Program-made: the position numbers and the translations under genes | Assembly (NCBI GenBank): GCA_001600815.1 | Contig: BCKZ01000017.1 | Location: 535,970-599,969 of the forward strand | From: Alloascoidea hylecoeti | Lineage: Eukaryota | Direction: 5' to 3' | Length of the DNA: 64,000 nucleotides | Shown here: piece by piece, positions 18,261 to 62,483 of the stretch | How positions within the stretch are numbered: the stretch's first letter is position 1 | Layout of the letters: each line of letters begins with the position of its first letter | Notes under the pieces: model-generated | What the model was told of the DNA's origin: nothing | The model's database searches: none | What the model saw: the letters and a program-made list of their open reading frames with translations, nothing else

Positions 18261-19051
18261 CTATTCAAAATCAACATCAATAATACCTTTTTTTGTGACA
18301 AATTTGACCTATAAAAACTAAAAGTTAGAAGTTCAATTCATTAATTCAAATAAACCGATGTACTTACATAAACACCTTTAAAATCAACTGGCATTCTTCT
18401 GTCTAGCTCAGCGACACATAATTTTAACACTTCAAGACCTTCTTCTAAAGACATTCCGTCTTTATAATGTCTATCTAGTAGAGATAGAGTATAGTAAGCT
18501 GCATATCCATGAGCAGCATAAGGAATAGAAGCATTGGTGCCTAAATAGTCGATCCAATTAAGGGAGGCCTTATCGGTTTTTATGTCATAACCACCTAACA
18601 ATAAATTAACTTGATATGGTTTCTAATTAAATGATAATTAATTAGTGATTGGAAAAACGTAGATTGTAAATCACAAAAACACACATACTCTGCTTCTTAA
18701 TGATTCTGCCAATTGATTTCTGACAAAACTTGCTACAGCATGAGGACTTAATTCATGAGCATTCCTTGTACCAAATAATTGAATATTAGCTTGAATATAT
18801 TCAGCAAATTGAACTATTAAATAATATAATAATGTTAATGATATTTCCCCTTTCTAATTCGCTTAATTTAAGTTTGTTTCCAAAAACATACCAGTATCAC
18901 CAGCTTCACCGGTAAATGCCATTAAAGAATGATCATTTAAAGCTCTTGTTTTATCATCTGTTGCTTTTAAAATACTAATTCCTCTAACTGCTGCTTTTGA
19001 AGTGGCAATTAAAGCACCGTCTTTAAGAGTAATTCCTAATAAAACATCCAT
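18261..19051 (-). CDS. PRE1: 20S proteasome beta-4 subunit; exons 19051-18892, 18813-18689, 18622-18368, 18308-18261
   Basis: Three GT-AG introns (78, 66, 59 nt) join MDVLLGI...[19 protein letters not shown]...[18 protein letters not shown]...[23 protein letters not shown]. Confidence 0.94.
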
Positions 19052-19154
19052 TTTCAATTTATTGTATTATCTTTTAAAATTCCCTTTGGTGCCTAATATG
19101 ATGTAATTGACTTGGTATTTCAATGAAAGAAACAACAATTCCAATTTCTTTTTT

Positions 19155-25008: not shown

Positions 25009-25929
25009 CTATTTTTTAGAATTAATTATAGCATTAATTTTCTTATCAACAATATTATTAATATATTTTGATAATGGTGAATCATCATTAATAATTTGTT
25101 TTGAAATTTGTAATTCAACTTGTTTTTCTAATAATTTACCCGTTAAATCAACTTCAACATTAACTAAATCACCAATTTTTTTCTTTGATATAATAACACG
25201 AGTTTGCGTATAAGCAATCATACTGATTGAAAAAGTTTTTTCAATTGAATTAACTTCTGTAACTGTTAATGATACACCATCTGTACAAATAAAACCTTTT
25301 TCAACAATATATCTATTATAATGATCATTTGTTAATTTAAATGTAAAATTTAATGCATTTCCTTCTGGTTTAATATCAACGATTTTTGCAGTTGTATCAA
25401 TATGTCCCTATAATATTTTATTTTTGTTAGTTTGAATTATTAATCATAAATTTTTAAATATTGAATAATTTACCTGAACCATATGTCCTCCAAATCTAAC
25501 ATCACCAGCAATTGCTCTTTCTAAATTAACAATATCATTTTTTTTTAAATCTCCTAAATTTGTTCTATTTAATGTTTCTGGACTTAATCCAACTTTAAAC
25601 CATTCTTTTCCATTAAATTCAGTAACAGTTAAACAAGTACCTATAGTATATCAATTAGTAATCATTTATAATTTATAATTGTAATTGTAGAGGAAGTGTA
25701 TTTACCATTAATTGCAATACTATCACCTAAATGGACATCATCTAGAATTGGACCAACGTCTGTTATTGTAATTGATGCTCCTTGACCTCCGGATTCTGAA
25801 TCATCTTTGCTTATATATTCAGAAACAGCTATAAAGAAATTGTTAGTTTTATTGATGATATAATTGAAATTGAAATTGGTATTGGAATTGATACTTACTT
25901 CCAATGTGTTCAACAATACCAGTAAACAT
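25009..25929 (-). CDS. RIB5: Riboflavin synthase; exons 25929-25899, 25828-25706, 25640-25474, 25407-25009
   Basis: Three introns (70, 65, 66 nt) join MFTGIVEHIG...GDSIAING-TCLTVTEF...VNLERA...RFGGHMVQ-GHIDTTA...KGFICTDGVSLTV...VNVEVDLTGK. Confidence 0.95.
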
Positions 25930-37454: not shown

Positions 37455-39009
37455 TATTTATGACCAATGTGATATGTGTGATATGTGTGATATTTGCAAG
37501 GCTGACTTGGCGAGGCTTAATTAGTGAGGTTTAATTGGTGAGGCTGAATTTTCAGGACTGAAGGTTGATAATAATTATTTGTATTGGAAATGCCGTTATA
37601 TTTATATATTTTCAGAGGAAATTTACAATTAATAATATCGAGGTTATTAATTACAAATCAAATAAATTATACTGAAATAGTGGTGGAAGGAAATATCGGT
37701 TGCTTTTTGTGAAAGGATAATTACAAATCAAAAATAATTTTTACAGGTTTAATTAATAATTAAGGAAGTATCGGCTTTTATTTGATAATTCCGAACGCCC
37801 ATGTTTTTCTATTCTTTCAGCATAAAAACATTCAGTTCCATTAAAAATGACTATTTCAGAATGGAAAGCCGTTTTATATTTTCTTCTATTCAAAAGATTA
37901 CTATTATCTTACTAAGAAGTTCATTTTCAGTCTGTTACGACTGCTATCTATACAAATGCTGTTTAACGCTGTTCTCTGCTGCCAGCATTCTATCATTTCG
38001 GTTATGAGCCATGCGCCCGTGTATATTAGTAACTATACTGTATAAGTGTATATTAATAAATTTGACATTACCAGAGAAGATTTAATAGTATTTACTCAAA
38101 ATATTCGTTCTATGGCATGCACTATAATGTACTGTATCCCCTCAGTTACGTGAGTCGCTCTGGATTAGATGAACAAGACAAATCAAAGAGTAAGCAATAT
38201 TTTACAACTTTACATGAAGAGTTCATAAAATCTCTTTTCATTATGGGCCGCTCATGAGCATCATAGAAAATCTTCGAAACTACACATCGGCTCAGTTTTT
38301 ATCGAGTTGCCGATTTACAACGATTATTTACATTTATTATAATTATATCCTTGGAGTAAATCTTTAACAATATATTATCCTCCACCGAATTTGTCAAAAT
38401 TCACAATTGACATTATAATAATTATAAACATGTTATTTCGGTCACCACCTTTATTTATTCCATTCCACTGCAATAGAATTATATCGATATATGCGCGAAA
38501 TTCTAAGTCTTATCTATCTAGTTTTATAGCTATATAGGCAGGGGCAATTGAAAACTTGCGTAATCTATAATTAATAATACTTTTGGTTAAAAAAATCATT
38601 GAATTTACTGTCTGACCAAGATCTACATGAAACCGGCGCTTTTTTCTCGAGTACCGCCCCAAATATCCACCCTAAAAACATGAATATGAAATATTCCCAG
38701 CATGTTTCTTTTTTTCTTAAGCCGAAAACCCAAACAAACAGAACGGTATGTCTGAAGATAGACTGGAGTGATCTCATGATGTTTGGGATGGTGTTGTCTG
38801 AGTACGTAGGTGCTCTACAAAAGCCAAGCCAGACCTTAAAAATATTTATAACATAGGTAAGTCTGGACTTGTGTGTCTCATGATCTGGAGTGAAAATTGG
38901 AAAAGTAGTCGTGCTGCATTGTAAGGGTTGACTAGGGTTCTTGTTATATATGCCTCGTAGAGGTGACGGCCATTTATGATCTTAAGGACGCTTATAACAA
39001 CTAAATAAT

Positions 39010-39130
39010 AAACTTAAAATGAAATTCTATAATCTATAGACTCTCCAGATTAAAACTATTCTAAGAACAGTTTAAGGTTTTATATAGCACTCACTACTTA
39101 GTAGTAAATGGTTATAATATTGCAATTGTC
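39010..39130 (+). repeat. Diverged dispersed repeat, copy 2
   Basis: aactattctaagaacagtttaaggttttatatagcactca (39054-39093) aligns to the reverse complement of 32040-32079. Confidence 0.6.
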
Positions 39131-41506
39131 TTATGTAAACTGGTAACCCGAAAGTAAAAGGTCTATATTTGTAGTTAGTAATTACTAATATATCTAGTAT
39201 TATAATCGTAAGCAGCTACAACTGACAATTTCAATGTTGTATGATAAGTTTATCTTGAAAATAATGTTGATTGAAGAATATTTAATATTGATATTAATAC
39301 TACTAATTAAATGGTGGAATTTAAATAAAATAATTATTGGTTTCTTTATATATTTCATTAAATTGTTTCTTGATTATAAGTCGTCTTTTGATTCAAATAT
39401 TTTCTAGATTATTCTGGTGAACACAACATAAATATTGTTGCTTTTCGTCTGGATCTGCTCGAATTCTGTAGCAGTGGAGTGTCTGGAGGTAAATATTTGA
39501 GAGTATTTAAAAACGTACCTAAAGAGAAAAGTGTTAAATTTCAACATTTATATTTGGTGGGTGTTTGTTTGAAATATTTAAGTTTGGTTTTTAAGGTTTC
39601 AATAATCGGGTTATTAATGGAACTCCATAAATGTTTTATTTATACAACATATTTATTTGGTCTCATTATTTATCTATTTAGTATGGTAATGAGATGAGTT
39701 TAGAAAACTATATTCAGCAATTAGCTGAAACGATGTAAGAACTTGTTAAGTTCAGAGACGAACAATGAAAATTTTATCTTTCAATTTTTCATTCGAATTC
39801 CCAAAAACTTAAATTATAACTCTAAAATTAACTCAATATATACAGATATATAAATGTGATCATAATTATGAAAACTGTAGGAAAATTCCTGGGAAATTCA
39901 ACTCCTAGAAGAGATAAGAATGTGGAGTATACGAAACGATTTTTGGACACTCCAATTGTGATATTTTTGAAAGACTCAACACCATGCTACACATGATCAA
40001 AATGATTAACCCTCTCTATTCCCCTCTATTCTGAGTGCAGGTGCTTGTGGAATAAAACCGTTAAATGCATTTGTCACATTAAGCGCTTAATGATCGTGTT
40101 TTTCAATACCACAAAATAAAAAATATCCCGTGCAACACAACCCTATACAGTGCCGAAAAGTGCCTCACCTTCTAGATCTTCTTCATGTAAGTTAGTGCTC
40201 CTATCAGCAAGGCTGGTGATATTACGTTGTGGTTTGAAGAGGAGGGAATTGATGAAACGGACAGTGATCTGAAGTTCTGAACCTAATTGAGAAGGTGTGA
40301 GCGAAAGTGAGTTTCCATAATGATTATAATGAATAACAAAACACAATGCAATTGGCAGTGAGCACCTAACATATAATAATGGCCGTAGAGCTTGAAATAA
40401 TCGTATTAATATTTTTTTTTCATTTTAATGAATAATTCACCAAATACTTAATAATGATAATGTTTAATACTTGTTGTTAGGTCATTAAATACAATATCAC
40501 TTCCTTCTATAACCAGAAAAAGTAAATTAACAATGAGACACGATCTTTCATTGGAATATCGTATTTTAGGAATTTTCCGTTGCTCCTTAAATCTCGACGT
40601 TACAATGATAGTTCCTGGATTAAGGTTAGCTTAATTTTTCAACCTTATAGCTCATTAGCTCACCTTATATCTAATTCTTAGGTTAATAGCTTAACTATGA
40701 TGCTTGAACTGGAAGGACAATTCTATCTGAAAATTTGCAATTTTAAAGTAATTAAAAAAAGCCTCTATTTCGAATTTAAATATTTATAAATAATTAATAG
40801 TGTAACAATTATAAAGAAATAATTGTGTATCATGAGATCTCGACCATCGGCCGCGGCAAAGCGGCTCGGAATTTAACTTGTCAAGTAACCGTCTAAGATT
40901 GCGGTGCACGTCATAAAAGTCTCATACAATAATTAAAAAAGTTTTCATTAACCGATCTTCAAAAGTTTGACAAAATGCGATCTAGATCTAGAGCCAAAGT
41001 TAATACAAATCCAGAGCCAAAGTAAATGTTAAGTTCAGTTAGAAAACCTCTTTATAAATTTAAAAGTGGAAATTTCATTTAGTTTTAGAAATGTTTCTAA
41101 TACTGTTATCGTTAAGATTAGCAAAACCTTATCGCTTAAAGCCGGGTAATGAAAACGAGTTTGTGTTAAAATTCTTTCAAAATCTCTAATATTTTTAGGT
41201 TGAACAGTAAAATAAATTATTCAAAAAAAAAAAAAAAAAGACATACACAAAATTTTATATCTAGCATAACACTTTTCTCCTTATTTGCTTATTTGCTTTA
41301 TAAGAAAAATAAAAGTAATTATAAAAATAAGAATCATAAAAGTAATTACATTATCTCAAAATTAAAAAAGAGCAAGTGCTAGTAATAGTACTTTAATATT
41401 GATTTTCTTGAGTTAAAAGATATTTATATCTCTATGATCAACATTTTTTACAAATAAATATATTATTTCATTAAATAAAATTTTATCAATAAAAAACAAT
41501 AAAAAA

Positions 41507-42928
41507 ATGGGTTCATCACCAAACCTACATTTTAACGATTGGGAGGCGGAAGATGAAAAACTTCAAAGTATTGCTATGACAGGCCCTAATGGATTACTTA
41601 TAGACGTTAAGACAAATGACACCAGCATATCCAATAATTTTGAAAATTTATCAAAAAATTTATACCTTGATAGAAAAATCATTAATACCAATAAGGAAGA
41701 TCTAGAAGACGTTGATATTATGGAACATGGTACCGGTGTTACAAGTGATCAAGATGGATCAGATATTGGTTCACCGGCATTGAATTTGATTACGTCAAAT
41801 AACGGTACACCTATTGGTCATCGCCTTATACAAACAACTTCTACAATATCATTTTTATCATTATCACCTGGAAATTTAATTAATAGTAATTTAAGTGACG
41901 AGGTATCTTTCGAGGCCAATAATCAAAGTCCAAAATTTCAAAATTGTATCTCAACAACATCAAATCCTATTGGAATTGGAATCGGAATTGGTTCACCGAT
42001 AAACAGAAGAGGATTACAATCAAATTTGAATAATTTTATAGACAGTAATCCAATTCAAATAAATAATATCAATAATGATGATGTTAATGTCAATAGTTTC
42101 AAAAGAGCAAATGGTCTTTTTGGTTCAGCTTCTGGATTTCAATCCTCATTTTATCATAAGAGGCATCATCATTATCAAAACAGTAATAATAATATTAACG
42201 ATACAAGTTCTCCAATCACGCGACAATCAAAACTTTCATTTGCCAATACAATGACTGCACCTGTTAATATTAACGGTAATAGCAACGTTAATAAGGATGA
42301 TTCCATGGTTTGGACAAACAATAATGGAAATATGCATAATAATAATGTGACGGCTGGTGAGCCCAGATCACCTCATCTTGATCCAGTATCACTTGCTGGT
42401 TCACCTTCAGGATATGTTTTAAACCACTCAACTTTACCAAGCTCGTTGTCTGGTCCAAAAGGCTCATATTTCCTATTGAATAATGTTAACGGTGGTGTAA
42501 ATAATATTGTTGCTGGAGAGAGAAATTCAGCAATTGATATTCCGCTTCAACCGTTAAATTCGCCTCATTTGCAACCTGTGCAGACTCCCATGGAACAACC
42601 CATGACTCCATTGTCACTATCACGAACGACAAGTCAGTCAGTTGAAAGAAGTGGTGGTTTTGCCGAGAGAGTGAGCCTATTGCCAAACATGCAAAATCTG
42701 AGTCTAAGAAGTTCCAACGGGAATATGTACGTGTTAAGTCCTAAAGCGAACGGCAGACGGAGCAGTTTGGCCAATCAATTCCAGATTCCAGGCATGGAAG
42801 TTTTGGACGAGCAGGAAGGTGAGAATGGCGGTGAAATGGAGTATATGAACAGTAATATTGAACATGAAATTCAACAAGCGCTGGAAGATGAACTCGAGAT
42901 CGGTCAGTTGCAAAACACGCAGAATTAA
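41507..42928 (+). CDS. Hypothetical Asn/Ser-rich, probably disordered protein with many SP/TP sites
   Basis: 473-aa ORF with A-rich start context (aaaaaATG) and motifs SPHLDPVSLAGSP and SPHLQPVQTPMEQPMTPL; family not recognised. Confidence 0.75.
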   Translation: MGSSPNLHFNDWEAEDEKLQSIAMTGPNGLLIDVKTNDTSISNNFENLSKNLYLDRKIINTNKEDLEDVDIMEHGTGVTSDQDGSDIGSPALNLITSNNGTPIGHRLIQTTSTISFLSLSPGNLINSNLSDEVSFEANNQSPKFQNCISTTSNPIGIGIGIGSPINRRGLQSNLNNFIDSNPIQINNINNDDVNVNSFKRANGLFGSASGFQSSFYHKRHHHYQNSNNNINDTSSPITRQSKLSFANTMTAPVNINGNSNVNKDDSMVWTNNNGNMHNNNVTAGEPRSPHLDPVSLAGSPSGYVLNHSTLPSSLSGPKGSYFLLNNVNGGVNNIVAGERNSAIDIPLQPLNSPHLQPVQTPMEQPMTPLSLSRTTSQSVERSGGFAERVSLLPNMQNLSLRSSNGNMYVLSPKANGRRSSLANQFQIPGMEVLDEQEGENGGEMEYMNSNIEHEIQQALEDELEIGQLQNTQN

Positions 42929-46896: not shown

Positions 46897-48642
46897 TTAA
46901 CACCAGAAATGGTATGTTCTGATATACCATGGTTTTGATTTCAATAAAGCTTTTTCTTCAGCAATTTCTTGTTTTAAAAGTTCAAGATCAAATTCTCTTC
47001 TACCTGTATCAAGATCAACATCTGCTAATTTAACATATAATTGTTTTTCTCTTTTCCAGATTTTGAAAAAGATCCAGAATGCTAGAACAACTGGAGCAGC
47101 AAGATATGATTGGAAAAATGTAGATGGATCTGGTGATTCCCCAATTGGATATAAAGCTACCCAAAATTGTGCAATAAGAATAAGAACATTTAAAATGAAA
47201 CCAAACCATGAGCCAATAACACCAGGTTGTGCTGTGAATGCTAACTCATCGGTACCACGACCATGTGCTTTTAGGGCAGATCTAAAACGAATGTGACAGA
47301 GACATACAGAACCCCATGTAAAGACAGAAGATAAACCAGATAAAGCCAATAACCAATTGAATACATCAGACTGTTTATCGGAAGCAGAAACAAAACAAAG
47401 CAAACCAACAAACATTGTTAAGCCAACAGCGGCTAATGGTCTACCTTTTCTATCAATATAACTGAAAATAGAAGGAGCTTGCCCTTGTGTAGCAAGGGCA
47501 ACTAAAGTACGAGAACAACCAAAGACAGCAGAATTAGCAACGGAAATAACTGCGATCATTATAACAACATTCATAACAGATGGAAGACCACTGATACCTG
47601 CATTTCTGATAGCAATAACGAATGGTGAAGCTGAAGCATCATAAGAAGATGTACCACTTAGTAATTTTTCATCATCATAAGGAACTAATAAACCAATAAG
47701 AGTCAATGAAATAATATAGAATAAGGTAATCCTCCAGAAAACTTGTTTTGTAGCCTTCGGTAAGGATTTTCTTGGGTTTTCAGTTTCAGCAGAAGCTAAA
47801 CCAACAAGTTCTGTACCAGCGAAAGAAAAGGCAGCGGTTACAAATACGGAACAAACACCTTTAAATCCAGCGGCAAATGCACCTGGATGATGCCAGTATT
47901 TACCACCCATATAACCACCATTTGGACCGCCACCACAGATTAAGATAACACCTAAAAAGATAAATGCAACAATTGCAATAACTTTAATAGTTGAGAAGAT
48001 AAATTCTGCTTCACCATAACCCTTAACACCGAAAACATTAATAAATAAGATTAAGACGTAGAATATTGCAACAAAAGCTACAGGATTAATTGTAGTTGTC
48101 CAAAATTGAATTGTCATTGAAGCTGCAACTAATTCTAAGGGTAAAACCACCAACCATTGTAAAGCATAATTCCAACCCATTGCAAAACCCCAAGAAGGAG
48201 AAATAAATCGTGTTGAATAAACAGAGAAAGAACCAGCCATGGGGAAGGCAACAGCTAATTCACCCAATGCATGTACAGTTGAATAAATCATAATACCAAT
48301 TAAAAACCAAGCAATAAGTAAAGCAGCTGGACCACCAGTTGATAAAGCTTTGCCTGAACCAATGAATAAACCTGTACCAATAGCACCACCAATAGCGATC
48401 ATTTGAATGTGTCTATTTTTCAATTTTCTTGCTAATGGAGAGTTAGCAGTTGCAGCAAGAGCCTTTTCAGCATCAGTAAGATTTGGGTCTAACTCAGCCA
48501 TCTCAAAACGTTTGAAGGAGTCTTTAAAAGACTGCCATTGAGATATACTCTTTGCTTCTGTGTAGATCTCATCGACCTGTGTATCAGCAATGTTTGTGGC
48601 TGGGGCCTTTTTCTCCTCAGTGTCAGTTGAGTTTCTTGACAT
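46897..48642 (-). CDS. GAP1: Yeast amino acid transporter (YAT) family permease, Gap1-like
   Basis: LKNRHIQMIAIGGAIGTGLF, GVKGYGEAEF, AAFSFAGTEL and C-terminal FWC; the exact paralogue is uncertain. Confidence 0.75.
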   Translation of the reverse strand: MSRNSTDTEEKKAPATNIADTQVDEIYTEAKSISQWQSFKDSFKRFEMAELDPNLTDAEKALAATANSPLARKLKNRHIQMIAIGGAIGTGLFIGSGKALSTGGPAALLIAWFLIGIMIYSTVHALGELAVAFPMAGSFSVYSTRFISPSWGFAMGWNYALQWLVVLPLELVAASMTIQFWTTTINPVAFVAIFYVLILFINVFGVKGYGEAEFIFSTIKVIAIVAFIFLGVILICGGGPNGGYMGGKYWHHPGAFAAGFKGVCSVFVTAAFSFAGTELVGLASAETENPRKSLPKATKQVFWRITLFYIISLTLIGLLVPYDDEKLLSGTSSYDASASPFVIAIRNAGISGLPSVMNVVIMIAVISVANSAVFGCSRTLVALATQGQAPSIFSYIDRKGRPLAAVGLTMFVGLLCFVSASDKQSDVFNWLLALSGLSSVFTWGSVCLCHIRFRSALKAHGRGTDELAFTAQPGVIGSWFGFILNVLILIAQFWVALYPIGESPDPSTFFQSYLAAPVVLAFWIFFKIWKREKQLYVKLADVDLDTGRREFDLELLKQEIAEEKALLKSKPWYIRTYHFWC

Positions 48643-48862
48643 TTTGATACTGCACTAATTATTGAAGTTAAAATTGACAAAACTTGACGAAACTCTCAAT
48701 TAGCAAAATAACAAAAAGGGTTAAAGTGTCCTTTATATATGAAAGCGGGAAAGTAATAATTGCCAAGCTCGGAAAGATTTCTTGGTCAAAACTAAGCATA
48801 ATTAAATTAAATTTAAACTACATTGGCATATTTTACATTGGATATTAAGCAACTGTAAATGC

Positions 48863-48914
48863 CTTATCTTGTATAAAGTGGGTTATAAATTAATAATGTT
48901 TCATACAAGATAAG
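48863..48914. promoter_or_regulatory. Pair of GATAAG (nitrogen-regulation GATA) sites upstream of the permease
   Basis: CTTATC 48863-48868 and GATAAG 48909-48914; TATA-like ATATATAAAG on - strand at 48731-48740. Confidence 0.4.
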
Positions 48915-50847
48915 TAACATATTATAATAATTTAGGAACGGCAAATAATATTTCTCTAATATTAATCCTTTAAATGTAAATTTTTTGCAGAAGGAACCAA
49001 TCATAATTATGATGCAGTCAGCATTAATACAATAGATAATGCATTCATACATATATTTATGCCAACCAGAACTCCCGATCTACTGCAACAATTTTAAATG
49101 AATTTTGCATTTCTACTTATGGCTTGAATTTATTAATCTTTCATTGTTGCTTATTGGATAAAAGTTCAAAAAGTATTATCATGCTTATATTTTCGTAGAT
49201 AAAAATTAATGTACCAGCAGCTATGTGCCTAAAATTGGCCACCTTCCATGTCGATATCGATTATACATACTTCGATAATTATGTATGATTTTGAACATAA
49301 CCGATTAAAAATATGGATGTCTATGGCCTATAGCCTTATATAAGTTCAAGTTATATTCATAACATATAGCCAGGTGTAAGCTTAGTTTAATTATATAAAC
49401 ATCTATATACAATTTTAGATTTGATTTTATTAAAGCATATATACCGTTTTTTTCCTACAATTGGTAGTATTAATTATTATTACGTACTCGTATAGCTCAT
49501 TATATGATCATCTAGAAAGAACCAATAGTAATTAGGTATTAATGAGCCTTACATATGGTTGCCACTACGTTTCATTCGAATTCAGATATTGATATCTGAG
49601 GTTAAGTTAACCACAATTTAAAGATTAGTAAACATGATCATGGAATCGAAATATATCGCTAATGTTATAGGCTTCATGATGAATATCACATAAATATCCA
49701 CAACTAATTAGTTCAGAGCGTCAGACCATATTTGTATGATTTTAGGTTCTACATAGATAGCCGTCAATAGTTCTGTATAAGTGCGTGCAACACCTTTTCA
49801 ATCTATACATTATTATTGGAATGTTCTAAATGTTCGGCTAAAGCTTCTATATGTAAGTGTCGCATCAGATTCGGTAGCTAGGGTCCAACGGTGTTTCACT
49901 CGAAAACGCATAACGACCTTGAGCAATGCTGTTTATCCACCTCTTGGTATACTTTATTTGAAAATATCTCAAGGAATCAATCATTTTTGACATTTTGAAA
50001 TATAAAATGATTATGGATTCAAGCTGACATCCAAGTTCCTCTAATTAAGTACAACGAAAAGGATATTCAGATCTAGATATTTCAATGTTATGTCGTGTGA
50101 GATTAAAGATAATGACGCAAGTATTATTGAGACGCAATTAATTTTTGTGTATTCCCATATAAGTAACCGGCGGGTAAATCAAATCTAAATCATTTGGTTA
50201 TTGCAACGCATTAAATCAGACTTTAAGATATAGTTAGAATAGATGAAGTAGACATCGAACTGTATTGGATGCTCTACCAGTTCGGCGGGGGATTTGAATG
50301 CAGAGAATTATAATTATTTGTTTCGCCGATTTATTTTTCAATCTTGCTTAAAACAAGCTTAATCTTCAATCATATTTGATACACTAACTACAATCTTTTA
50401 ACTCCAAAATTGCCTTAGAAGCCAGATCGGGAATCATTCACTGAATTTCCAACTTCAGCAATTCAACTGACTAAAGATTTTGAGAAGGCCAATTTCGGTG
50501 GAATACAATCCGATGTCACGGTTTACTCAGTTCAACAACTTAAGCTATTTACTCCAGACATAGATACAAAGTTACAACCCCAAGATTCCACTCAATCATA
50601 GGCCCATTCACACACACTACATACGAAAAGATGTATCATCCATCGTATCATATTTCACCCTTGATATTACAATACAATTGAAATTAGAATATTTGCTCAT
50701 TCCCTATAATTATGAGTTTATGGTGTGTATTGAAAATTATTAGTCTAAAGTAATATTGTTCTTTTACTTTATTTTATCTGATCAATATGTTTCCTAAAGA
50801 TCTGTATGCTATGTTTTATCACACTCTATGCCATGTTTTATAAACGC

Positions 50848-50950
50848 CCTTTTTTCTTTTTGGGACACCACTCCAGAGAAATCCCCAAGAACCCTTCTCA
50901 TATGGGCTGGAATTTGGAAAGGTGGTTGTAATTTACTGTTTAGAATGATT
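50848..50950 (+). mobile_element. Possible Tc1-like transposase relic
   Basis: LLIWAGIWKGGCNLLFRM resembles the VMVWAAIWxGGRSxL motif of fungal Tc1-like transposases; very short. Confidence 0.3.
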
Positions 50951-51869
50951 GTAGAATCGTAATTCTAATACTTCATGCCTCGTAGCGTGGAACTCGTTCA
51001 TGGTGTTAAGGGTGCGCGCTAACACGAAATACTTCACCCAAAATGTCACTTTATAAAAGTGGAGATCCCAGAGAACGCATAACTTTAGGGTTGACCCGGC
51101 TGTATTTCAATCAGCTGCTCTCAGTGGTTTTATGGGGTCAATTTTCTCAATTGCTATAGAATAGAATACCATAATGGGGGGTAAACATCTTGTAGAATGG
51201 GCTATATTTCCTTTACTTATATGTCAGGAAACTTAGGATAGTCTTAGATAATTTGGCTCTCAATGTTAATAAACTCAACTTATAAGTTTTCTCAACACTA
51301 GCTCTAATCATTAAGGTAACCTTGAGACACTTTTAAATCCAAGCTTGAATTATAAGCTCAATCTATTAAAATATTAATTGCAATCGGAAAGTGTACAAAG
51401 TACAATAATTATTTTAAAGACTATTCTGGTTATACTCTCAAATTCATATATAGTAAAGGCTTTTAGATCTACAACAAGCATATGCCCGCTATAATTTAGA
51501 GTTTAATATAATAACTGTATATGCCCTGAACTAATAGAAGTAATTGAGAATGTCTATAATGTTATAAAACATATTCTTCCATTATAATTAATATTATGAT
51601 TAAAACGTCATATAATTACTAACTACATATAGTATTTATTCAAATCATATTAATTATAATCTATAATATACACTCTATTGCAATTGTTGTTTTATTAGTA
51701 TTGAGTTAATATTAATGTTCCACAGCGCCGGAACAACCCTTTTCCCAGAAAATCGTCTCGAAATATTCTCTGCAAAACTCAATTTTACCCCAAATTGGTC
51801 AATATCAAAAGCAAAAATGGCCCAGAAACCGAGAAAAGCTCAAAAATTAGAGGACACAACTCTAGACGC

Positions 51870-52160
51870 TCTTACAAAGATTGTTGCGCTATTCGTCAGC
51901 ATCTGTCTGATTTTCTTAAACGGGAATTAGGTTTAGATCTGTCGATAGAAAAGACAGCTATTATACCTGCGAAGGAAAAATACGCGAATTTTCTGGGTTT
52001 CAAAATAAGGATAACTCCTTACGAGAAACGATGCAAGATATCATGGAGTGAACACAACTACACTGAGAGCCCGCATAAGTAGAGTTGTTTCCTAAGATAT
52101 CAGCAATCAATTGAAGCAAAAGCTTACTGTTCTGGAGGAGACCAAAATCACACCGAATAT
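51870..52160 (+). pseudogene. Fragment of a mitochondrial-type group II intron RT/maturase (RT6-7 plus start of domain X); likely NUMT
   Basis: SYKDCCAIRQHLSDFLKRELGLDLSIEKTAIIPAKEKYANFLGFKIRITP, then frameshifted VNTTTLRARISRVVS*DISNQLKQK/AYCSGG. No YADD motif is visible upstream. Confidence 0.7.
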
Positions 52161-55100
52161 TCAAGAAATATCAAATTTTGGATGTGCTTCAGATAAAACA
52201 CATTATTTTGTATGATTGATTATTATATATATTGAGATGTTTTTTAAGAAGGATAGAAAATTGTAGAAGTTTAAAACAATTGGGTGATTGGCATCATACG
52301 ACTAACTTATGGCTCAATGGCTTTTAAAATCGATATCCCAATGAGAAATATAAGCGCGTAACGTCACTGGATACCTTCAGATTCTTTGCCTCGGATGATT
52401 ATAATGTGTAATACTGGTTATCGAAGAGTTTCATAAACAGAATATGAAATATTTGGCCGATTTTGTGTAAGAAAGAAACACGATTGAGTCCAATCAGTGA
52501 TACTATAGCTATATAGATGTTCCAGAGTCACAAAAAGCCCTCAATCCACTGAAACGTTTGAAGGGGAAATCTTCTATAATGTATGAAGGTAGGGGGATTA
52601 CTAAGTTTATACCCAGTCTCAACATTATGAATGATGTGAAGAAAATGGCATCTTCATGACGCATTCCAGCTCCCAAACGACACGAAATGCTTGTAAAATC
52701 TTTAAAAAAATATCACGATGGTTCTGTGACTTTCCTAATATGAACGCCTTTTATATATTTAACCAATAACTAAAATTTTTAAAATTTTAAAAATGTTTTA
52801 GTTTAAGGCTTCTAGTGGTTGTTACAAGAGAACTAAAGTGCTCACATGTTAGCTACAGGTATATACCCATCAATTTAATGACATCGCAAATGTTGTAATA
52901 ATCCAACCCAAAATATTCGCTAATAACTATGAGAGGTGACACAATGAATCTAGAAGCGCAAAAAGTGTTCGCTACACCAAATTGTGAATAAGATTTTTAA
53001 TGATAAGCTAGATGAGTCAATTAATTCATTTGCTTATGCTGAAATGGGTGATAAAGCACTGCTCAAATTGTAGTGGTAAATGTTTGATTCTATATTCTGT
53101 TGCGCTTTGGCACGACAACTTACATTCATTCAGCGGTTCTTATGGATATCGCACGCGGCTTAATTGTTGAGTAAAGCCTATTAATATTGTTTATTATTAA
53201 ATGAATCAAGTTTAAGTTAAAACATTCAACATTCCTACAATTACCACTAGTTTGTGATTTTATATGCATATATGAATGATTCACAAAATACACAACAACG
53301 GGCAAAGGGACTGTAGTATAATCTGTAGATACAGTATTTATGTTAGATAAATTTTGGATTAGACTATTAATATTATAATATTTATCAACATGAGAATTGA
53401 TTATGACATGATCATTCCACGTTCATGAAATATGGAACATGATCTGCAGTCGCAATATTAGTTTCTATTTAGTATGTAAGGTAGAAGATCCAAACGCGAC
53501 AAATGTGATTAAAAGATTTAACTTTCTTAATAATTAAAAAAGTTAGTATAATTACTATAGTGGAACTTCAGTTTTTCATATGATGTTTGCGGATATCATG
53601 CGATTATATATCATGCGTATATGCTGCGTATATTGATGTTCGGAGAATCGTGATAGTTTTATTTAAATTTTACACAACCAGTATTGATTGATATTACATG
53701 TATAACTTCTCGTAAGGTAAAATTATAATAATATTATTGAGCTTGTAAAAGTAAAATTAATAAACTAGAAAAACTGTGAAAACTAAGGAAAAGACATTTT
53801 ACAAGTTAACAGAAAAGATTGAAGATTGATCCAATCGAATTACATCTCAGACCCAACAAGTACTAGTCCCTTACTATAACGGTTTATTTCAGAAGTCTCA
53901 CAGTTCAGGCCAAATGAACGTTTAGCGCCACCGCACGCACCGCATTCGCCATAGTTAAGAAGCGTTTTCATATAATGATGTGCATCTGCATAAAGCTAAT
54001 AGATGTTACCTTATCCACATGCTTGCATGCACATGCACACTGAAATATTTCTTTATACCGTAATCAGTATACAGTTGCATGCATTTCAGGGAGACCCAAA
54101 ATTGTTTATTTTCAGTGACGCGGAGTAGGAACAAGATCTCACAAGTCTGGGAAGTTGGAACAGTGACACAGCCGAACCTCGTTACTTAATTAATTATATA
54201 ATATACGATTTTATAGGATTATAATATACCTTAATCCACTAGAGTAATTTAATTACATACAGCGAATAATTACATGGTTCGTAAACCACAATAAGCTTAT
54301 ATATTATATAATCACTATTAAGTATATGAAATATTTTGATCTGGGTAATTCATTATAATATAATTACGACAACAAGCAATCCTAAATAATACTAAGACAA
54401 TAATATAAAGATCAAATCGATACTGCGAGCTTAAACTAGGTCTCTTATAAACATAATCATAAAATTCAAAGCTGCCAATGACAACACCACAATTAGGGGA
54501 CAATTAATTAAAGCCATAGTAATTAGCAATTACAAAGATTTCATAGCCTTCAAGAGGTCTACATTTGCCCGTCACATTTATAAGAATAACGATCGCGAAT
54601 AAGCTCAATAACCAATACTAAATTATTGGAAATAATAAAAAATAGGCACTACAAAATAAACCAGATAAACAGTGTATTAACCACGAATATGAATATCATT
54701 ACTTTATAATTCGGGTGCAATAAATCTTAAATTATAATACCATTTTAAAAGGTTTACTATTTTCCACCAAAAACCAGATGTTAACGTTTATTATATATAA
54801 AACTGTCTTTTTCCCCATAATTTTCCACTCATGATTATACGGGCTAAAGGAAGTAGTTGTTATTATAGTACATGCCATTCAGCTCAACTTTAGTGTAGCC
54901 TATATCCATGAATTGCTGAATATTATCAACAGCAAAGTTTGAATACGGCGGTGAAAGCATAGCTGCAGAACAAGTGAAGTTCTAGACTATACATCTAAAT
55001 ATTACTGCAGAGATGTGAAACATGCATGAACTTACTACATTTTCAGTGTCAAGCTTCCAAACAAACTATCCATAGAATATATACTCCACACATAGTTGTG

Positions 55101-55790
55101 ATAAGTTATTAAATATCTAAATGTTTTATATCTAAGTTAAGGAATATGATTGAAACCTTTTTAAACAACTTCGAATTCAAACTCAATTGCAAATATTTTA
55201 TCATTGCAATAATAGTTTAAAGTTAACCTATTCAGTTGTTAATCTTATGACCTAATGTATAACCGGTAAAGGAAACAAATTAAACAAAGCAAGAGAGTCA
55301 AAATAATTATAATGTTTTATTTAAATATGGTCTTAGAAGGATTTAAAATACGAGTTGGGCATATGACAGATAAAAATTTTAGAACATATTATTTGGTTTC
55401 TTATATAATTAATGCATCTCGACCCTCACAGTAATCAACGACGTGTAAGAAATAAAGGAGAAACAGACAGGGTTAAGATTCTATCATATAGGATTTCCTT
55501 TATAAACGACTTATAATTATCATTCAATTAATTGTTGCTAGGAAGCGTAAACAAATGAACAAAAATATTCCATCCACTGACCGGCCTTTATTTACATTAA
55601 TATTAATATTGTTTATGTTTATCAAACTTTTCCTCTTTTTTAAATTTGTTCACCCTGAAATAAATTCATCTTCTTGATGTTTTGAAAAATTTTAAAGAGT
55701 ACTAAAACAAGAATTAGACGTCTGGATTTCTTAAGGTTCTATCCGTATTGTGATTCAGCTCTATCATCATACTTTAGCTTCTTTTACGTA

Positions 55791-57308
55791 ATGAATGTGG
55801 CAACGCCTAATAATGGCCATGGAGATAATACAGAACCTCCCGATATTGGATCAGCATTTCACATGGACTCAATTGCGGTTACTTCCCAGTCGCAAACGCA
55901 GATATCTTCAGATAAACAGTTAGACCAGTCAAGCTTACCTCTATCGCGATCTATACATCAAACAAGAAGTCAAACACACCAGATATTGTCATCTCAACAT
56001 ACTCCTCAATCAAATTCACCATCCCAAGCCCAACTCTCTATCACCCAGCCTCAGTCACCAACTAATTTTGGGTCAGATGTCATACTTCCTCAGTCACGAA
56101 GAGAGTCACATTCATCTTCTTCTTCCTCAAGAAAAGTTCTTTGGACCGACGAAAAAGACGCGCTTCTAGTCGAGTCATTAGTTCAAGAGATCACAAAGGG
56201 AAATAGACCAAACAATATTTATAAGAAACAAGCTTGGGTGAATATAACACAAGCAGCAAATAAAACTGGTAGACATGCTACAGATAAGCAAGTTAAGAAC
56301 AGATTTTCGGAAGTATGCATGATTTTAAGTTTTGATAATGCAACATTATAATTATTGTTGTTATAATATATGAATACATGGCGTACTAACATTTCAAACT
56401 AGTTAAAAAAACAATTCATGGCTTGGTTAAAGCTTGTAAAAAATCCTAATTTTCATTGGGACGATCAAGCGTGTCGGTTTAATGCTCCTTCTTCAACTTG
56501 GGAAGCCTATATTCCTGTAAGTATCAACAGTGCATAAGAGCGAGTGACTAAGTTAAGAGAGGACAGCTTTCAATTAACATAATATTTATAGAAAAACCCG
56601 GATGCTTCAAGGTTTAAATCAGGAACACACCCCTTAGTACCTCGACTAATTCCGGTCTTTGAGATTTATTTGGATTCTCCTCCTCCTCAGTTAGCAAGCA
56701 CACATAGGCCGAGTGATATTCCTGTTTCAGTAGTCGGTAACGTTAGCGATTTTAGTTTCGAGAAAATTATGGAGGATGAGTTTTCCATGGGATCTGGTAT
56801 CACGAACCCCGGCCGACATATCATTCCACAGCAGGTTTCACAGGTTAGCAAACGACCTCGCATTTCAGGTAGTGATTCAAGGCTGATTAGGACGAATACA
56901 AACACAAATGCAAATGCTATAACGTATGGATCTGAAGTATATGCAGAACCCCAAGCTCCCGTCAGATTGAACGCTGCAACAACTAGCACAACAACTCAAG
57001 CAGAAGGCTATGTTCGAAGATCTCAACCCCAATTACAAGGAGTATCTAATACACAACAACAACTTACTACCTCTCTCACAAGTAGTAGTAATTCTGACGA
57101 ACTTCTGATCGATTTCATTAGAACATTAGAACGATTGTATAATAAAGGACTGATTGATTGGGATATGCTTTACAATTTCTGCCTAATACGAACCGATATT
57201 AAGTACACATTATCAATTATAGCGAAAGGATTACGAGATGATTTGTTATCCAGATTCCTCAAAACATGGTATGCTAAGCACAGCACAGGGCCTCCAAGCA
57301 ATAGTTAA
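55791..57308 (+). CDS. Myb/SANT-like DNA-binding protein of PIF/Harbinger type (Myb_DNA-bind_3-like); exons 55791-56312, 56403-56516, 56592-57308; 450 aa
   Basis: Two introns (90 nt GTATGC..TACTAAC..TAG; 75 nt GTAAGT..TAG) join WTDEKDALLVESL...KKQAWVNI...KQVKNRFSE-LKKQFMAWLKLVKNPNFHWDD...WEAYIP-KNPDASRFK in one frame. Confidence 0.8.
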
Positions 57309-59213
57309 TGACAATAACATCAATATTGGTCGATGGTTAATTTTGGATTTACAATTGGTCCTTCAAGCTTTCAACAGATTTTAATCATTCTATTTTTGTA
57401 TCCTATTCTTGTAACTACTGATTTTTTATAATATAAGCAAGCAATTGAAACCAACATTTTCTTTATTGGACCACTTTTCCTTCTATGGCAAGGAGCATAT
57501 ATTGCGATCACAATTGAGACGCGAATTCGAAGAGTTTTGAATTAATAATCATAGGTGTGCATCCTCATATAGGCCTATAACATTCATCTTTTTTTTGTTG
57601 AAATATTTATATATTAAAATTGTTGTAATATCTTGACTGCTACCATTGTATACTATTGCAAACACATTACCATTATTATTAGCAACTGCTTGGGACTCCG
57701 GAGTGACTATTTTCAAAATATACGTATACGTATTAAGTAAGTAGCATTGATATTTGTTTGTCTAAATCGATTCCCAGAAGATCAACATTAAGGTTAACAA
57801 TAGAAAATTTTCAGATGTAGATTTACTAGAATCGCCATTTTAAGGCTATGCGACCAATTGCAGATCAGTTATATATTGTTACTTAATTATCCGGTCTGTA
57901 TTATTATTGTGGGTCTTTAGTCTAATACAATTGGTGATTATAAATCATAATGAAGTTGCACAACATTTGCAATACGCAGTTACATTTCTAAGCTCGAAAC
58001 TGCCACAAAGTCGATCAATGAGTCATCATTAAAAATTTTCAAAGATCACAATTTCTCAAATCTAACTGCAGCTGTATGTATATTGAAAATTTAACAGTGA
58101 TTTCGGACTACAACAATAAAAAGAAAAATTTTCAATTATGTCCAAAAGTGATTCATGCAATGTAAAATTATTCAGATAAGATTTAATGCTTATAATTATA
58201 ATTTAGTATCTAAATGTACGTACTACGTATGATGCATATATACCGGATCCTATTGTTTAAGTAGTTGGAACTTGGGGGTATTATTTTAAAACTTGTCTAT
58301 GTAATTATAATTAGCTAACTTATATACGGATAATTAATAATTACATGTAGAATCTGTTACATCTGTATTTATAGTGAATAGTTAATCGGTGATCATCGGC
58401 TCGAGTATAAACGATAATACTCTATGGATAATAGTTGAATATTGATATAGAATTTCAAAATTGCAGCCGATTATAATAATTATAAATACCAATACATTAC
58501 TTAAATTTTTTGTCGTAAACGTATAGTATACAAAATCATTTGAATTTTTAATTAGTAAATAGATCTGGTTTATAAATTATAATGCTGATGTTGGATCACA
58601 TTTTACGAGAACTTTTTAAATTTACGATGTGAATCCTTGTCAATTACCACTAAACACTTTAAATTCAAGATTAATATATTACAGCGGCGATACCGGCTTA
58701 TATATTTTAAAGTTGCATCGCTAGTAGGTCTGTATTTCAACTTTCAGGCATACTGCAATTTCGGGAGCGATTGATATTTTTGATAAATATACCGAATATT
58801 TTAAAAATTAACTACGGATAAATATACACTAGTAAACTAAAATATTTTAACAAAATATCTTTTATTGATGTTTAATTGTTTATAAAACTTAATTAATAAT
58901 GGGAGTGCTTTGTAATTATAAGATAAATTGTTAATTTCTCAGTGCTTAACCTGCATTTGGTAATCATATTGAATTTTATTTAACCAATATTCATAAAAAT
59001 AATTAGTTACCTAACAGATGAGACACGACAGACGTTATTATATATTTGCAATATCAGTATAATATTAGCTATCCCTTTAGATTATACAGCCATGTATAGG
59101 TTTAGGGAAGATATATGATAACAAATATTAATATTCAGTTGGAATAATAACTGTAAGTACTTTTTCAAAACTTATGTTAAGCGCACAGATTCATTTAATT
59201 TCAGCCATGTAAT

Positions 59214-59450
59214 ACACTAATGTTCAGTCATTCCGATTATTTATTATCAAACATCGTATACACTAAATATTCGCCCAAACGCTGCACTATTGTTGGACCA
59301 CGTGAGGCACTAATAAATCGGCTGACATTAATTCTAGGCCGTGTTGACGAATAAATGTCGGCCATTTGATTCACTAAAAAACTGCTCAAATGATACACTA
59401 ATGTTCGGCCATTCCTAATACAAGTTTTCGGGACCTTAATTATTGGCCTC
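59214..59450. repeat. Degenerate array of CACTAA..CGGCC-like motifs
   Basis: tacactaatgttcagtcattcc (about 59214) and tacactaatgttcggccattcc (about 59393), with weaker copies between. Confidence 0.55.
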
Positions 59451-60656
59451 ATGTGTGATTTTGTTTACTGGTATATCTCCTTCGTAAAGTCAGCTAATAT
59501 TTCTCTTATTTTATATTTAGCTTGGAGTTATATTGAAGATGATATATACATTATGTCTCCTTGAATCTTATACATTATTCATCAATCTGGCAGATACTTA
59601 TCGATATAAGTTAAAGGTCACCCTAATTAAATATGAAATGACTGCATAATTACACTTATGCTTAAGGCATCCAATTTTACTCGACATAATTGTTAGGATA
59701 TAGCGGTTGAGATATGGGACAATGGAGGATATGAACACTCTAGAGGAAAGAGAAACTATGGACACTAAGATAAACTAATTTATAAAAAAGAACCTTATAA
59801 CCGAGAACAATAATTTATATATTTCAATTGCAATTGCTGTTAAAGTTCAAAGTGCCTGTTCTCCCAATTGCGCCAAAAAGCCAATCGACTCTTTAGTGAA
59901 CTGTTCTAAGAGTGTAATATATATCCAACAATTGCAATTGTAAATCTTCAATATATATACAGCTCAATATTTTAAGTTCTAAGTAAATGTACCTGGATCA
60001 GGATCCTTCTTTCTTAAAGAGGTTCCGGAACAATTAATAACATAAGTTGGTGATCATGATTAACATTCATTAGTTATATGGATTCATGTTCATTTCATAA
60101 TTGTAACACTATAAATCGTTATAAAACTATTAATATAATACACAATAGAGTTTATGTTTAAATTCTCGATATAGTATTCATTTTCAGTAAATATAGATCT
60201 ATATTATGGAAGAATATAAATCTAAAAGCTTCTATTTCATTATACATCACGCTATAGTTAATAATCCCATATATATCCATTTTAATTACCTACAAAGAGC
60301 AAATTAAAACAATGGTCATGATCATGGAGTGGCATAAATCATGAGCAGCTAATATTAATATTAAAATGAACAAATATAGAATGCAAATCCATTTGTAATA
60401 ACTATGCATAGTAGTATAGCTATGACTTCAAATATAGGAAAAATAACGACAGATTTACTATGAATAATCCAGCCCTCACATAATAGATGTAACAGACTGA
60501 TCTTGATGTACTCAGCTCTTTTCCAAACTTCAATTGCAATGAATATAGACATATATCTAGATCTATAAATATCATAGCTGGTGTTATTATGCCAGTCATC
60601 CAATTATCCATGCTAATGTTCTATCTAATAACACACAATGCGGAATATTTTTTTTA

Positions 60657-60668
60657 CCCCGGAAAAAT
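60657..60668 (-). promoter_or_regulatory. Mig1/CreA glucose-repression site upstream of GAL1
   Basis: Minus strand reads ATTTTT-CCGGGG (AT box plus SYGGGG), about 250 bp before the ATG. Confidence 0.6.
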
Positions 60669-60911
60669 TGGTTTGTAGAGGTAGATTCGTAAATGTCGAC
60701 TGAAATAAAAAGACCCGCAGTTGCCGTATTCTACTACATGCATATTGTTCATTCGATCTAAATTATAAACTTGGCAGTAGGAAATTAGCAATGATGTGAT
60801 ATTCATCTCTCACTCTAACATGATGTTATAAAAGCACGGGAATATCGAGTATAAACTCTTTTGTATTATACTTTCAAATAATTCAATACTTTATAAATTT
60901 ACTGAACAATA

Positions 60912-62483
60912 ATGTCTTTAATCCCAAGTGAAGAAAAGATATCGGATATTTACACTGCTCCTGCCCCGCAATCAAAGCGATACCAAGCACTTTTAACTAA
61001 ATTTAAGGAAACATTTGGTCTTGATGCTGAATTTGTGACAAGAAGTCCTGGAAGGGTTAATATAATTGGTGAACACATTGATTATTGTTATTATTCAGTT
61101 TTGCCGATGGCAATAGAGAGCGATGTTGTTATGGCTGTCAGTATCAGGGATGATAATAAGGTTATCTTACACAATATATCACCTTTATTTGCACCCGTTG
61201 AGTTTGAGTTACCTACTGCACCAGGTAAATTGGTGGATATTGATCCTACTGTATCTCTTTGGGCAAATTATTTCAAATGTGGTCATTTGGTGGCTAATCA
61301 GTTTTTATGGAAGAACAGAGAAAAATATAACTTTTCTACTCCAGTTGGTATGAATATCTTTGTTGATGGTAATGTTCCTACTGGGGGTGGTTTATCATCC
61401 TCAGCCGCATTTATTTGTGCATCATCACTCGCAACGTTAAAAGCTAATAAAGTTACAAAAGTTACTAAAGAAGATTTAACTGCTATGGCTGTTGTTTCCG
61501 AAAGACATGTTGGTGTAAATACAGGTGGTATGGATCAAAGTGCTTCTGTTTGGGGAGAAAAACACCATGTTTTATATGTTCAATTTAAACCTCAACTAGC
61601 TACCAAAACATTTGCTATACCAGAAACAACACCAAAACCGGTTTTTCTTGTAGCTAACACATTATTTGTTTCAAATAAATATGAAACTGCTGCTACAAAT
61701 TATAATTTAAGAGTTGTAGAAGTGACATTAGCTGCTCAGATGCTAGCTAAAAAGTTAGGTGTCACAATAATTAATGATGGAAATTTGGGGTATGGTACTT
61801 TAAGAGGGTTTTCAGATGCTTATTTCCAAAAAGTAGAGAACTCTGCACCTTGGGTGGATAATGAAGATATAGAAGAAGGTGAAAGAAGATTAGCTCAACT
61901 TGAAACGCTCGTGGAAGAGCAACTTGATAAAAAGGATGGTTATACTACAGAAGAGGTTGCCAACGAATTGGGAATCTCTGTCATTGAATTGAAAAAACAT
62001 TATATGACTAAATTTCCAGTGAGATATAAGAAGTTGAATATCTATAAACGTGCTAAGCATGTTTATTCTGAGTCTAGACGTGTTTTACAATTTCTGGAGA
62101 TATTAAAGAATGCAACCAACAAACTTTCTTCTGCTGAATCTTTATCTTTATTAGCAAAGTTAGGTGATTTAATGAACGAATCTCAAGTATCTTGTGATAC
62201 TTTATTTAATAATTCATGCTCTGAAATTGATGAAATTTGTAGGATTGCTCGTTCTAATGGTTCATTTGGTTCTCGTTTAACAGGTGCAGGATGGGGCGGC
62301 TGTACTGTTCATTTGCTTCCAGAGAATAAAGTTGAAAATGTTAGAACCGCTCTAATTAATGATTTTTATAAGAAGAAATATCCAGGTATTACAGATAATG
62401 AATTACAAGAAGCATTAGTTGTTTCAGAACCAGCTGTTGGAAGCGCTATTTATGTTGGAGGTATTGACGGCCTACTAAAATAA
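60912..62483 (+). CDS. GAL1: Galactokinase
   Basis: SPGRVNIIGEHIDY, PTGGGLSSSAA, GGMDQ and GSRLTGAGWGGC GHMP-kinase motifs. Confidence 0.96.
   Translation: MSLIPSEEKISDIYTAPAPQSKRYQALLTKFKETFGLDAEFVTRSPGRVNIIGEHIDYCYYSVLPMAIESDVVMAVSIRDDNKVILHNISPLFAPVEFELPTAPGKLVDIDPTVSLWANYFKCGHLVANQFLWKNREKYNFSTPVGMNIFVDGNVPTGGGLSSSAAFICASSLATLKANKVTKVTKEDLTAMAVVSERHVGVNTGGMDQSASVWGEKHHVLYVQFKPQLATKTFAIPETTPKPVFLVANTLFVSNKYETAATNYNLRVVEVTLAAQMLAKKLGVTIINDGNLGYGTLRGFSDAYFQKVENSAPWVDNEDIEEGERRLAQLETLVEEQLDKKDGYTTEEVANELGISVIELKKHYMTKFPVRYKKLNIYKRAKHVYSESRRVLQFLEILKNATNKLSSAESLSLLAKLGDLMNESQVSCDTLFNNSCSEIDEICRIARSNGSFGSRLTGAGWGGCTVHLLPENKVENVRTALINDFYKKKYPGITDNELQEALVVSEPAVGSAIYVGGIDGLLK

Follow-up and report, generated by a model that had tools for sequence, protein, structure and literature searches.

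A solo Myb_DNA-bind_3 gene upstream of GAL1 in the budding yeast Alloascoidea hylecoeti, possibly of Harbinger-like or plant-type origin

Alloascoidea hylecoeti, a deep-branching and very AT-rich budding yeast, carries on contig BCKZ01000017.1 (GenBank assembly GCA_001600815.1) a three-exon gene whose 450-amino acid (aa) product contains one Myb/SANT-like unit of the Pfam family PF12776 (Myb_DNA-bind_3). The gene occupies 55791-57308, on the + strand, of the 64,000-nucleotide stretch that we analyzed (positions 535,970 to 599,969 of the contig, forward strand; hereafter the window, whose numbering is used throughout). Its frame is intact, the available contigs point to a single copy, and no transposase domain is found in the 64 kb. 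An earlier reading of the DNA, made from the sequence only, had described the gene as a candidate domesticated regulator. We favor, at a probability somewhat below one half (roughly 0.45), the view that it is a resident, single-copy coding gene that is kept solo, and that it goes back either to a PIF/Harbinger-like element, of which it would be the DNA-binding gene that survived, or to a horizontally arrived gene related to plant LIMYB.

Gene model and protein layout

Exon 1 (55791-56312, 174 aa) begins with the earliest in-frame ATG that follows a stop codon and encodes a Ser/Gln-rich N-terminus and, after it, two thirds of the Myb/SANT-like domain; exon 2 (56403-56516, 38 aa) supplies the final third; and exon 3 (56592-57308, 238 aa followed by TAA) encodes a family-typical extension of the Myb unit, a predicted disordered linker and a predicted C-terminal helical bundle. 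Both introns are in phase 0. Intron 1 (56313-56402, 90 nt) runs from GTATGC through a perfect TACTAAC branch site (56384-56390) to TAG and has in-frame stops inside it, and intron 2 (56517-56591, 75 nt) combines GTAAGT with either ACTAAG (56547-56552) or AATTAAC and a terminal TAG, with plant units aligning free of gaps over the junction that it leaves. Read unspliced, the frame contains six stops; the exons themselves are open and each intron is a multiple of three nucleotides long, so all six sit within the introns. The frame is open far beyond chance in this DNA of 29-33% GC: at a stop probability of 0.077 per random codon, calculated from the local base composition, the chance of 174 open codons is P = 9e-7 and that of 238 open codons is P = 5e-9, and the longest stop-free piece elsewhere in 48650-60910 measures 125 aa. 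Two host genes on the - strand of the window, a proteasome subunit gene and a riboflavin-synthase-like (Lum_binding) gene (18344-19066 and 25012-25650), are likewise divided by introns of ~60-70 nt that begin with GTATGT or GTAAAT, carry nCTAAC-like branch sites and end in TAG (GTAAAT..AACTAAC..TAG in the Lum_binding gene; GTATGT..CATTAAC..TAG and GTATGT..CACTAAT..TAG in the proteasome subunit gene). Mid-gene introns are therefore normal for A. hylecoeti, and both introns of the Myb gene share their type of splice signal with these host introns.

Examination of the translated exons places the domain across the first junction. Scored separately, exon 1 residues 118-173 match PF12776 profile positions 2-59 (39.4 bits, E 1.2e-9) and exon 2 residues 1-36 match positions 61-96 (30.2 bits, E 9e-7), each exon thus exceeding the gathering score of the family (23.6 bits) by itself; since the profile positions run from 2-59 on to 61-96, the junction between the two exons is seamless in the profile. 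A tryptophan and aromatic core can be read along exons 1 and 2 as LWTDEKD, KKQAWVN, FMAWLK, FHWD and STWEAY. The whole unit (56142-56660, + strand; residues ~118-235), which is split by both introns, is colinear with 51 plant units: in phmmer alignments, residues ~105-235 of the spliced protein run parallel to plant units over both junctions (query residues 105-235 against residues 30-161 of P0018, for example), and the alignments extend ~25 residues past the start of exon 3, ending at ~222-236 in the numbering of the spliced product. Judged by these profile and alignment matches, the protein is a clear member of PF12776 that appears to be without the C-terminal tail of its plant LIMYB-like matches. 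We take this family, following its Pfam description, to be associated with transposon (PIF/Harbinger) proteins.

Beyond the Myb unit, the layout comes from composition, pattern matches and structure prediction, by which the product is best described as four-part: a Ser/Gln-rich, probably disordered N-terminus, one PF12776 unit of the LIMYB/transposon-ORF1 kind, a linker that is predicted to be disordered and contains a KRPR motif, and a small predicted helical bundle. Residues 1-115 are 50% S+T+Q+N, and the linker spans residues 236-377. The KRPR motif (56850-56861, + strand; residues 299-302), a pattern match within the linker, resembles a nuclear localization signal and may work as one. Prediction with AlphaFold2 (AF2) without an alignment gives a predicted local distance difference test score (pLDDT) of 80-93 over residues 166-235 of P0003, which correspond to residues 378-447 of the protein (57087-57296, + strand), and <50 elsewhere; the modeled segment forms four to five helices. 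No Pfam family was found on exon 3. A comparison of the bundle with 48,161 chains (VIA-align) returned no informative fold match, the top matches being an RXLR effector and then TOG/HEAT-like helices; the best Z, 6.4, falls within the range common for helical models, and we dropped a fold assignment for this reason. A sequence search of the PDB yielded no match for exon 1 and only two for exon 3, at E 0.55-0.74.

The structural claims of the sequence-only reading are thus upheld at each point. The three-exon, 450-aa frame is as it had been drawn, with open exons, recognizable splice signals and a domain that continues over the junctions; the complete Trp-spaced Myb/SANT-like domain is confirmed by the PF12776 profile search that the reading itself had proposed; the Ser/Gln-rich N-terminal region is evident from its composition; and the helical C-terminal segment reappears in the AF2 model.

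Copy number, surroundings and base composition

No second copy of the Myb gene occurs within the window. For a view beyond it we turned to contigs of the same organism, among them those of X4, a run from another study and the only one of four matching runs that is not flagged as a possible source of the window. The X4 contigs do not differ from the window anywhere in 53992-56046 or 56099-59865, and their depth over the bins of the gene (6.6-7.4) is that of the single contigs there and of the flanks. The four matching runs include no RNA run, and two metatranscriptome runs from the study that produced X3 contain next to none of the sequence words. Contig depth is not a copy number, and the single-copy reading is drawn from the absence of extra contigs: because gene-bin depth equals single-contig depth in X3 and X4, no extra contig of at least 80% likeness lies on the gene. 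The contigs of X3 and X4 break at different places, and the breaks therefore do not mark the borders of repeats. As far as the contigs show, these observations point to a single-copy gene. Copy number was one of the checks that had been proposed for this locus, and the contigs point to one copy; multiple near-identical copies, a mark of an active PIF/Harbinger element, were found neither in the window nor among the X3 and X4 contigs at a likeness of at least 80%, and a many-copy element with terminal inverted repeats (TIRs) was not seen.

Domain scans of the window covered 78 stop-to-stop pieces of at least 40 aa from 48650-60910 (78 of the 94 listed, the 16 left out being those that overlap the Myb gene itself), 101 further pieces of at least 50 aa that lie outside the long open reading frames (ORFs) in the rest of the window, and 15 long ORFs. 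None of these contained a transposase, reverse transcriptase or integrase domain, and the adjacent DDE transposase (DDE_Tnp_4-type) that marks an active PIF/Harbinger element was not encountered in the 64 kb. Around the gene, 20 inverted pairs can be aligned (up to 32 nt, 70-94% complementarity), all of them AT-rich, as in the palindrome AATATTAATATT; none of the 20 rises above the AT-rich chance background, and there are no credible TIRs with a 3-bp target-site duplication among them. Repeat searches for TIRs and long terminal repeats (LTRs) in 48650-60910 and 50300-54300 gave short AT-rich matches only. The domain scans and the inverted-repeat search hence agree with the earlier statement that neither a DDE transposase nor TIRs stand beside the gene. 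It also holds that the Myb gene is the nearest gene upstream of GAL1-GAL7: GAL1 (60912-62483) is on the same strand and starts 3,603 nt downstream of the Myb gene stop codon, and GAL7 starts at ~63698.

The gene had further been described as intact amid decayed element-like sequence, and here the two halves of the statement part ways. Its intactness is borne out; the decayed elements are not, as the ~12 kb around the gene, which contain no other recognizable gene, contain no recognizable mobile-element remnant either, the 78 flanking pieces matching no transposase or mobile-element family. The sole hint in that direction is a second, diverged copy of parts of 50.5-54.2 kb. Within 50489-54177, same-organism contigs join position 50988 to position 52530, with 34 other letters replacing 1,541 nt, and several bins stand at about double depth in X4. 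The contig joint and the doubled X4 bins indicate that some of this gene-free stretch is present a second time, in diverged form, at another place in the genome; searches of 50489-54177 turned up no LTR, TIR or protein domain.

Base composition sets the Myb gene apart from the core genes of the window. Its GC content at third codon positions (GC3, 0.30) and at fourfold degenerate sites (GC4, 0.26) is the highest of 15 long genes compared; 14 long ORFs average a GC3 of 0.12 with a standard deviation of 0.066, which puts the Myb gene at z = 2.8, and housekeeping genes range from 0.04 to 0.13 in GC3 and from 0.04 to 0.14 in GC4. Under strong AT pressure, such a high GC3 suggests that the Myb gene has been resident for less time than the core genes. 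Raised values also occur in an ORF at 41507-42928 (+ strand; GC3 0.28, GC4 0.24), which encodes an Asn/Ser-rich protein of 473 aa with no Pfam family even at E <=1, in the GAL7 fragment (GC3 0.29, and GC4 0.34 from only 41 GC4 sites), in GAL1 (GC3 0.21, and GC4 0.15, just above the core range) and in an amino-acid permease gene (GC3 0.21, GC4 0.11). Given this uneven synonymous-site GC over the window, the GAL genes and their neighbors may differ in history from the core genes.

Relatives, known systems and origin

An exhaustive phmmer search with exon 1 against 1.84 billion cluster representatives (cut-off E 1e-3) returned 59 matches, comprising the window's own ORF, two that we judged spurious, and 56 at 22-39% identity. 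In the spurious pair, P0027 and P0031, both long and repetitive, the similarity is to the Ser-rich N-terminus, and neither is counted as a relative. Ten of the 56 were looked up: eight are from angiosperms (Phaseolus, Papaver, Magnolia, Acacia, Pterospermum, Sarcandra, Aristolochia and Nelumbo), two of these being called LIMYB-like, and two are unnamed, so that no fungal name occurs among the named matches in this set of ten. Protein-atlas neighbors of the Myb part are exclusively PF12776 clusters labeled Streptophyta (score 0.91), and exon 3 has no usable match there. Ranked by median score, the yeast unit is fifth lowest of 52 units, and a few of the plant units stand at least as far from other plant units as it does; the rank is only a hint, since the 52 units had been selected for their similarity to the yeast protein. 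Exon 3 found no relative among 1773 candidate longer proteins and only the window's own 212-aa ORF among 268 candidates of similar length, and contigs of the Joint Genome Institute (JGI) metagenomes gave 169 pattern matches for exon 1 and 595 for exon 3, none of them confirmed. Contigs of organisms B and C (X9 and X10) cover only short pieces of the permease (in X9 also GAL1) at <90% likeness; none falls on the Myb gene, which is no evidence of its absence there. For comparison, GAL1 is 53-55% identical to its best named relatives, from Pachysolen, Nadsonia, Lipomyces and Babjeviella. With named galactokinases no closer than 55%, the host is without close annotated relatives, and missing orthologues of the Myb gene are therefore weak evidence.

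The plant LIMYB-like proteins are the best matches. They are colinear with the whole ~130-aa unit at 27-34% identity, including the extension past the Pfam model, but differ from the yeast protein in that most of the plant matches have two to six tandem units and a conserved C-terminal tail, whereas the yeast protein has one unit. A pattern search finds a tail ending in ...R..WL...L in 35 of the 56 eukaryote-like matches. We had suspected by eye that this tail was present in the yeast C-terminus, and rejected the candidate when a hidden Markov model built from the 35 tails scored -1.3 bits on exon 3 (E 0.12, single target). LIMYB itself is described, in PMC12075613 and in the preprint 10.1101/2023.06.13.544461, as a downstream component of a plant signaling module.

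By description, a second group of proteins resembles the yeast product in plan: the ORF1/Myb proteins of PIF/Harbinger elements and their descendants ALP2 and HDP2 (Arabidopsis), NAIF1/MSANTD (vertebrates) and DPM (insects) likewise combine a Trp-spaced Myb/SANT-like domain with a separate C-terminal region. According to PMC7282668, it is the C-terminal region of the Myb protein of rice Ping that binds the nuclease, and ALP2 is called domesticated on three criteria, namely low copy number, no adjacent nuclease gene and synteny in relatives. As those criteria are worded there, the yeast gene shares two of them, being single-copy and having no adjacent nuclease gene in the 64 kb. Harbinger systems pair the Myb protein with a nuclease, whereas near the yeast gene no transposase partner, domesticated or active, was found within 64 kb; an adjacent transposase, TIRs and multiple copies, the marks of an active element, were looked for and not found. 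Among yeasts, Kluyveromyces lactis Kat1 (hAT) and alpha3 (MULE) are presented in PMC5499181 as domesticated transposase genes that are kept as single host genes with roles in mating-type switching. These are catalytic transposases of other superfamilies, in contrast to the yeast Myb gene, which appears to encode a DNA-binding protein of the accessory type. Class II elements are called especially scarce in budding yeasts (PMC4316626), Dekkera centromeres have only 40-90 bp Repbase similarities (PMC4999066), and PMC13469147 mentions neither Harbinger nor PIF nor Myb. In our literature search, no paper turned up that describes a gene of Harbinger or PF12776 type in Saccharomycotina.

The reading that we favor can be put as a sequence of events. 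The gene would have started out as the DNA-binding gene of a PIF/Harbinger-like element that has survived, or as a LIMYB-like gene that came in by horizontal transfer; it would have reached the lineage fairly late; any transposase partner would since have been lost, and the solo gene would now be kept, presumably to the benefit of the host. Its Myb unit would bind specific DNA in the nucleus and its C-terminal bundle would recruit a protein partner; by analogy with the systems described above, we infer a nuclear adaptor with a DNA-binding Myb unit and a partner-binding bundle. A solo, single-copy gene with no transposase in reach is the expected look of a domesticated gene, and a young relic would look alike. 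The proposal of a domesticated regulator therefore survives in part: an intact and spliced PF12776 gene, found as one copy among the contigs and with neither a transposase domain in the 64 kb nor TIRs, speaks for it, but a recent arrival would account for its high GC3, and for its absence from all other yeast protein sets that were searched, no less well than a regulator domesticated long ago. Composition and taxonomic isolation together point to late arrival over an old regulator.

Several observations weigh against the favored reading. The intact frame could be that of a young relic which has still not decayed, and a transposase may exist elsewhere in the genome, the search having covered the 64-kb window. 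An independent isolate is identical over the gene, so that polymorphism is zero. No transposable element-encoded ORF1 was recognized among the matches, the named ones being plant host-gene annotations, and no orthologue came out of any protein or metagenome search. The LIMYB tail motif is undetectable in the yeast protein, as the score of -1.3 bits shows. Finally, the ORF at 41507-42928, the GAL7 fragment, GAL1 and the permease share the high GC3, and causes other than recent arrival are therefore possible.

Among the alternatives, we consider it unlikely, though not far-fetched, that the gene is a dead leftover. It would then be ORF1 of a PIF/Harbinger copy that has died out, with its transposase gene and its ends gone through decay or deletion; the loss would be too recent for the frame to have closed, and the gene would do nothing for its host. 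In favor of this, the gene is absent from all other yeast protein sets searched and from the JGI metagenome contigs, its GC3 has yet to fall to the host level, it sits in a 12-kb stretch without other recognizable genes, and parts of the gene-free stretch have their diverged second copy elsewhere. Yet nothing in the gene is broken, neither its 450 codons nor the 5' and 3' splice sites and branch sites of its two introns, while the presumed partner and ends are beyond recognition in the flanking pieces and inverted pairs; that the neighbors should have decayed to invisibility and left this gene perfect, at ~0.077 stops per random codon, argues for selection. Descent without any transposon is decidedly unlikely in our estimate, that is, an old, vertically inherited PF12776 host gene which was lost from, or is unannotated in, most budding yeasts. 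Its host-type introns and single copy would agree with this, and the distance of the host from annotated relatives (53-55% for GAL1) makes the missing orthologues weak evidence, but the exhaustive phmmer search produced no fungal-named match (eight of the ten looked up being angiosperm and two unnamed), GC3 and GC4 are at the top of the 15 long genes compared, and the fifth-lowest rank of the yeast unit among 52, a hint only given how the set was picked, likewise speaks against it.

We give a low probability to a scenario in which a gene of plant type (LIMYB-like, or the DNA-binding ORF of a plant-like Harbinger element) crossed into the yeast, whose habitat may be decaying wood. There it would have gained yeast-type introns, or kept them, and persisted as a solo DNA-binding adaptor in the nucleus, next to a GAL cluster that is itself compositionally unusual. 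Still lower is our estimate for the direct transfer of a plant LIMYB-like host gene, with no transposon involved, into a plant-associated yeast. In its favor are the eight named matches, all angiosperm among the ten looked up, the Streptophyta PF12776 clusters of the protein atlas, and the occurrence of the stretch, besides runs of the organism itself, in a wood decay metagenome run, which may itself be the source of the window. Against it, identity across the matches is only 22-39%, the plant C-terminal tail motif was not detected in exon 3, and the introns are of yeast type. Plants, moreover, dominate the PF12776 family, so that plant top matches are expected whatever the origin of the gene, which counts against direct transfer. 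We regard it as very improbable that the gene serves specifically to regulate the neighboring GAL1-GAL7 cluster. Position speaks for it, the Myb gene being the nearest upstream gene, at 3,603 nt and on the same strand, and GC3 is raised in the GAL7 fragment and GAL1 as well; against it, the known yeast GAL regulators belong to families other than PF12776.

Should the gene prove to be expressed and under selection, yeasts would gain a DNA-binding factor of a new class, with a transposon or horizontal transfer as its source, and the gene would be a tractable model in which one gene combines one domain with one helical partner module. Were it only a young relic, it would still record the entry of PIF/Harbinger-like or cross-kingdom DNA into a lineage where this is rarely seen. 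If a plant-type gene did cross into the yeast and was retained, budding yeasts would have their first case of co-option of a Harbinger-type or LIMYB-type gene.

Neighboring genes and other features of the window

Apart from the genes already named, the window carries ordinary yeast genes, which encode a kinesin, Dam1, a DEAH helicase, a primase, a GH5 enzyme, a WD40 protein, RRN3, a Pex2/12 protein, a DUF3533 protein, an F-box protein and eIF6, together with a MitMem_reg gene; the amino-acid permease, the proteasome subunit and the Lum_binding gene discussed above belong to the same set. Searches for tRNA genes in the window and for Rfam families in 48600-61000 found none. Three stretches of 4-8.6 kb (1-8636, 37455-41506 and 48643-55790) have no ORF of at least 150 aa and a GC content of ~0.26-0.35, and their stop-to-stop pieces (>=40-50 aa) gave no meaningful Pfam match; in a yeast with a compact genome such stretches are unusual.

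A segment of ~90 nt at 59838-59931, ~1 kb upstream of GAL1, behaves differently from its surroundings. Its summed contig depth is ~2000 vs ~9 in the flanks, in both X3 and X4, and many contigs end there, each with a different loose end. The segment is not a tRNA (ARAGORN), matches no Rfam family and has no further copy in the window. Inverted copies of CAATTGCAATTG, at 59822-59839 and 59926-59943, flank the segment, which could be a short dispersed repeat, a miniature inverted-repeat transposable element (MITE) or a piece of organellar DNA.

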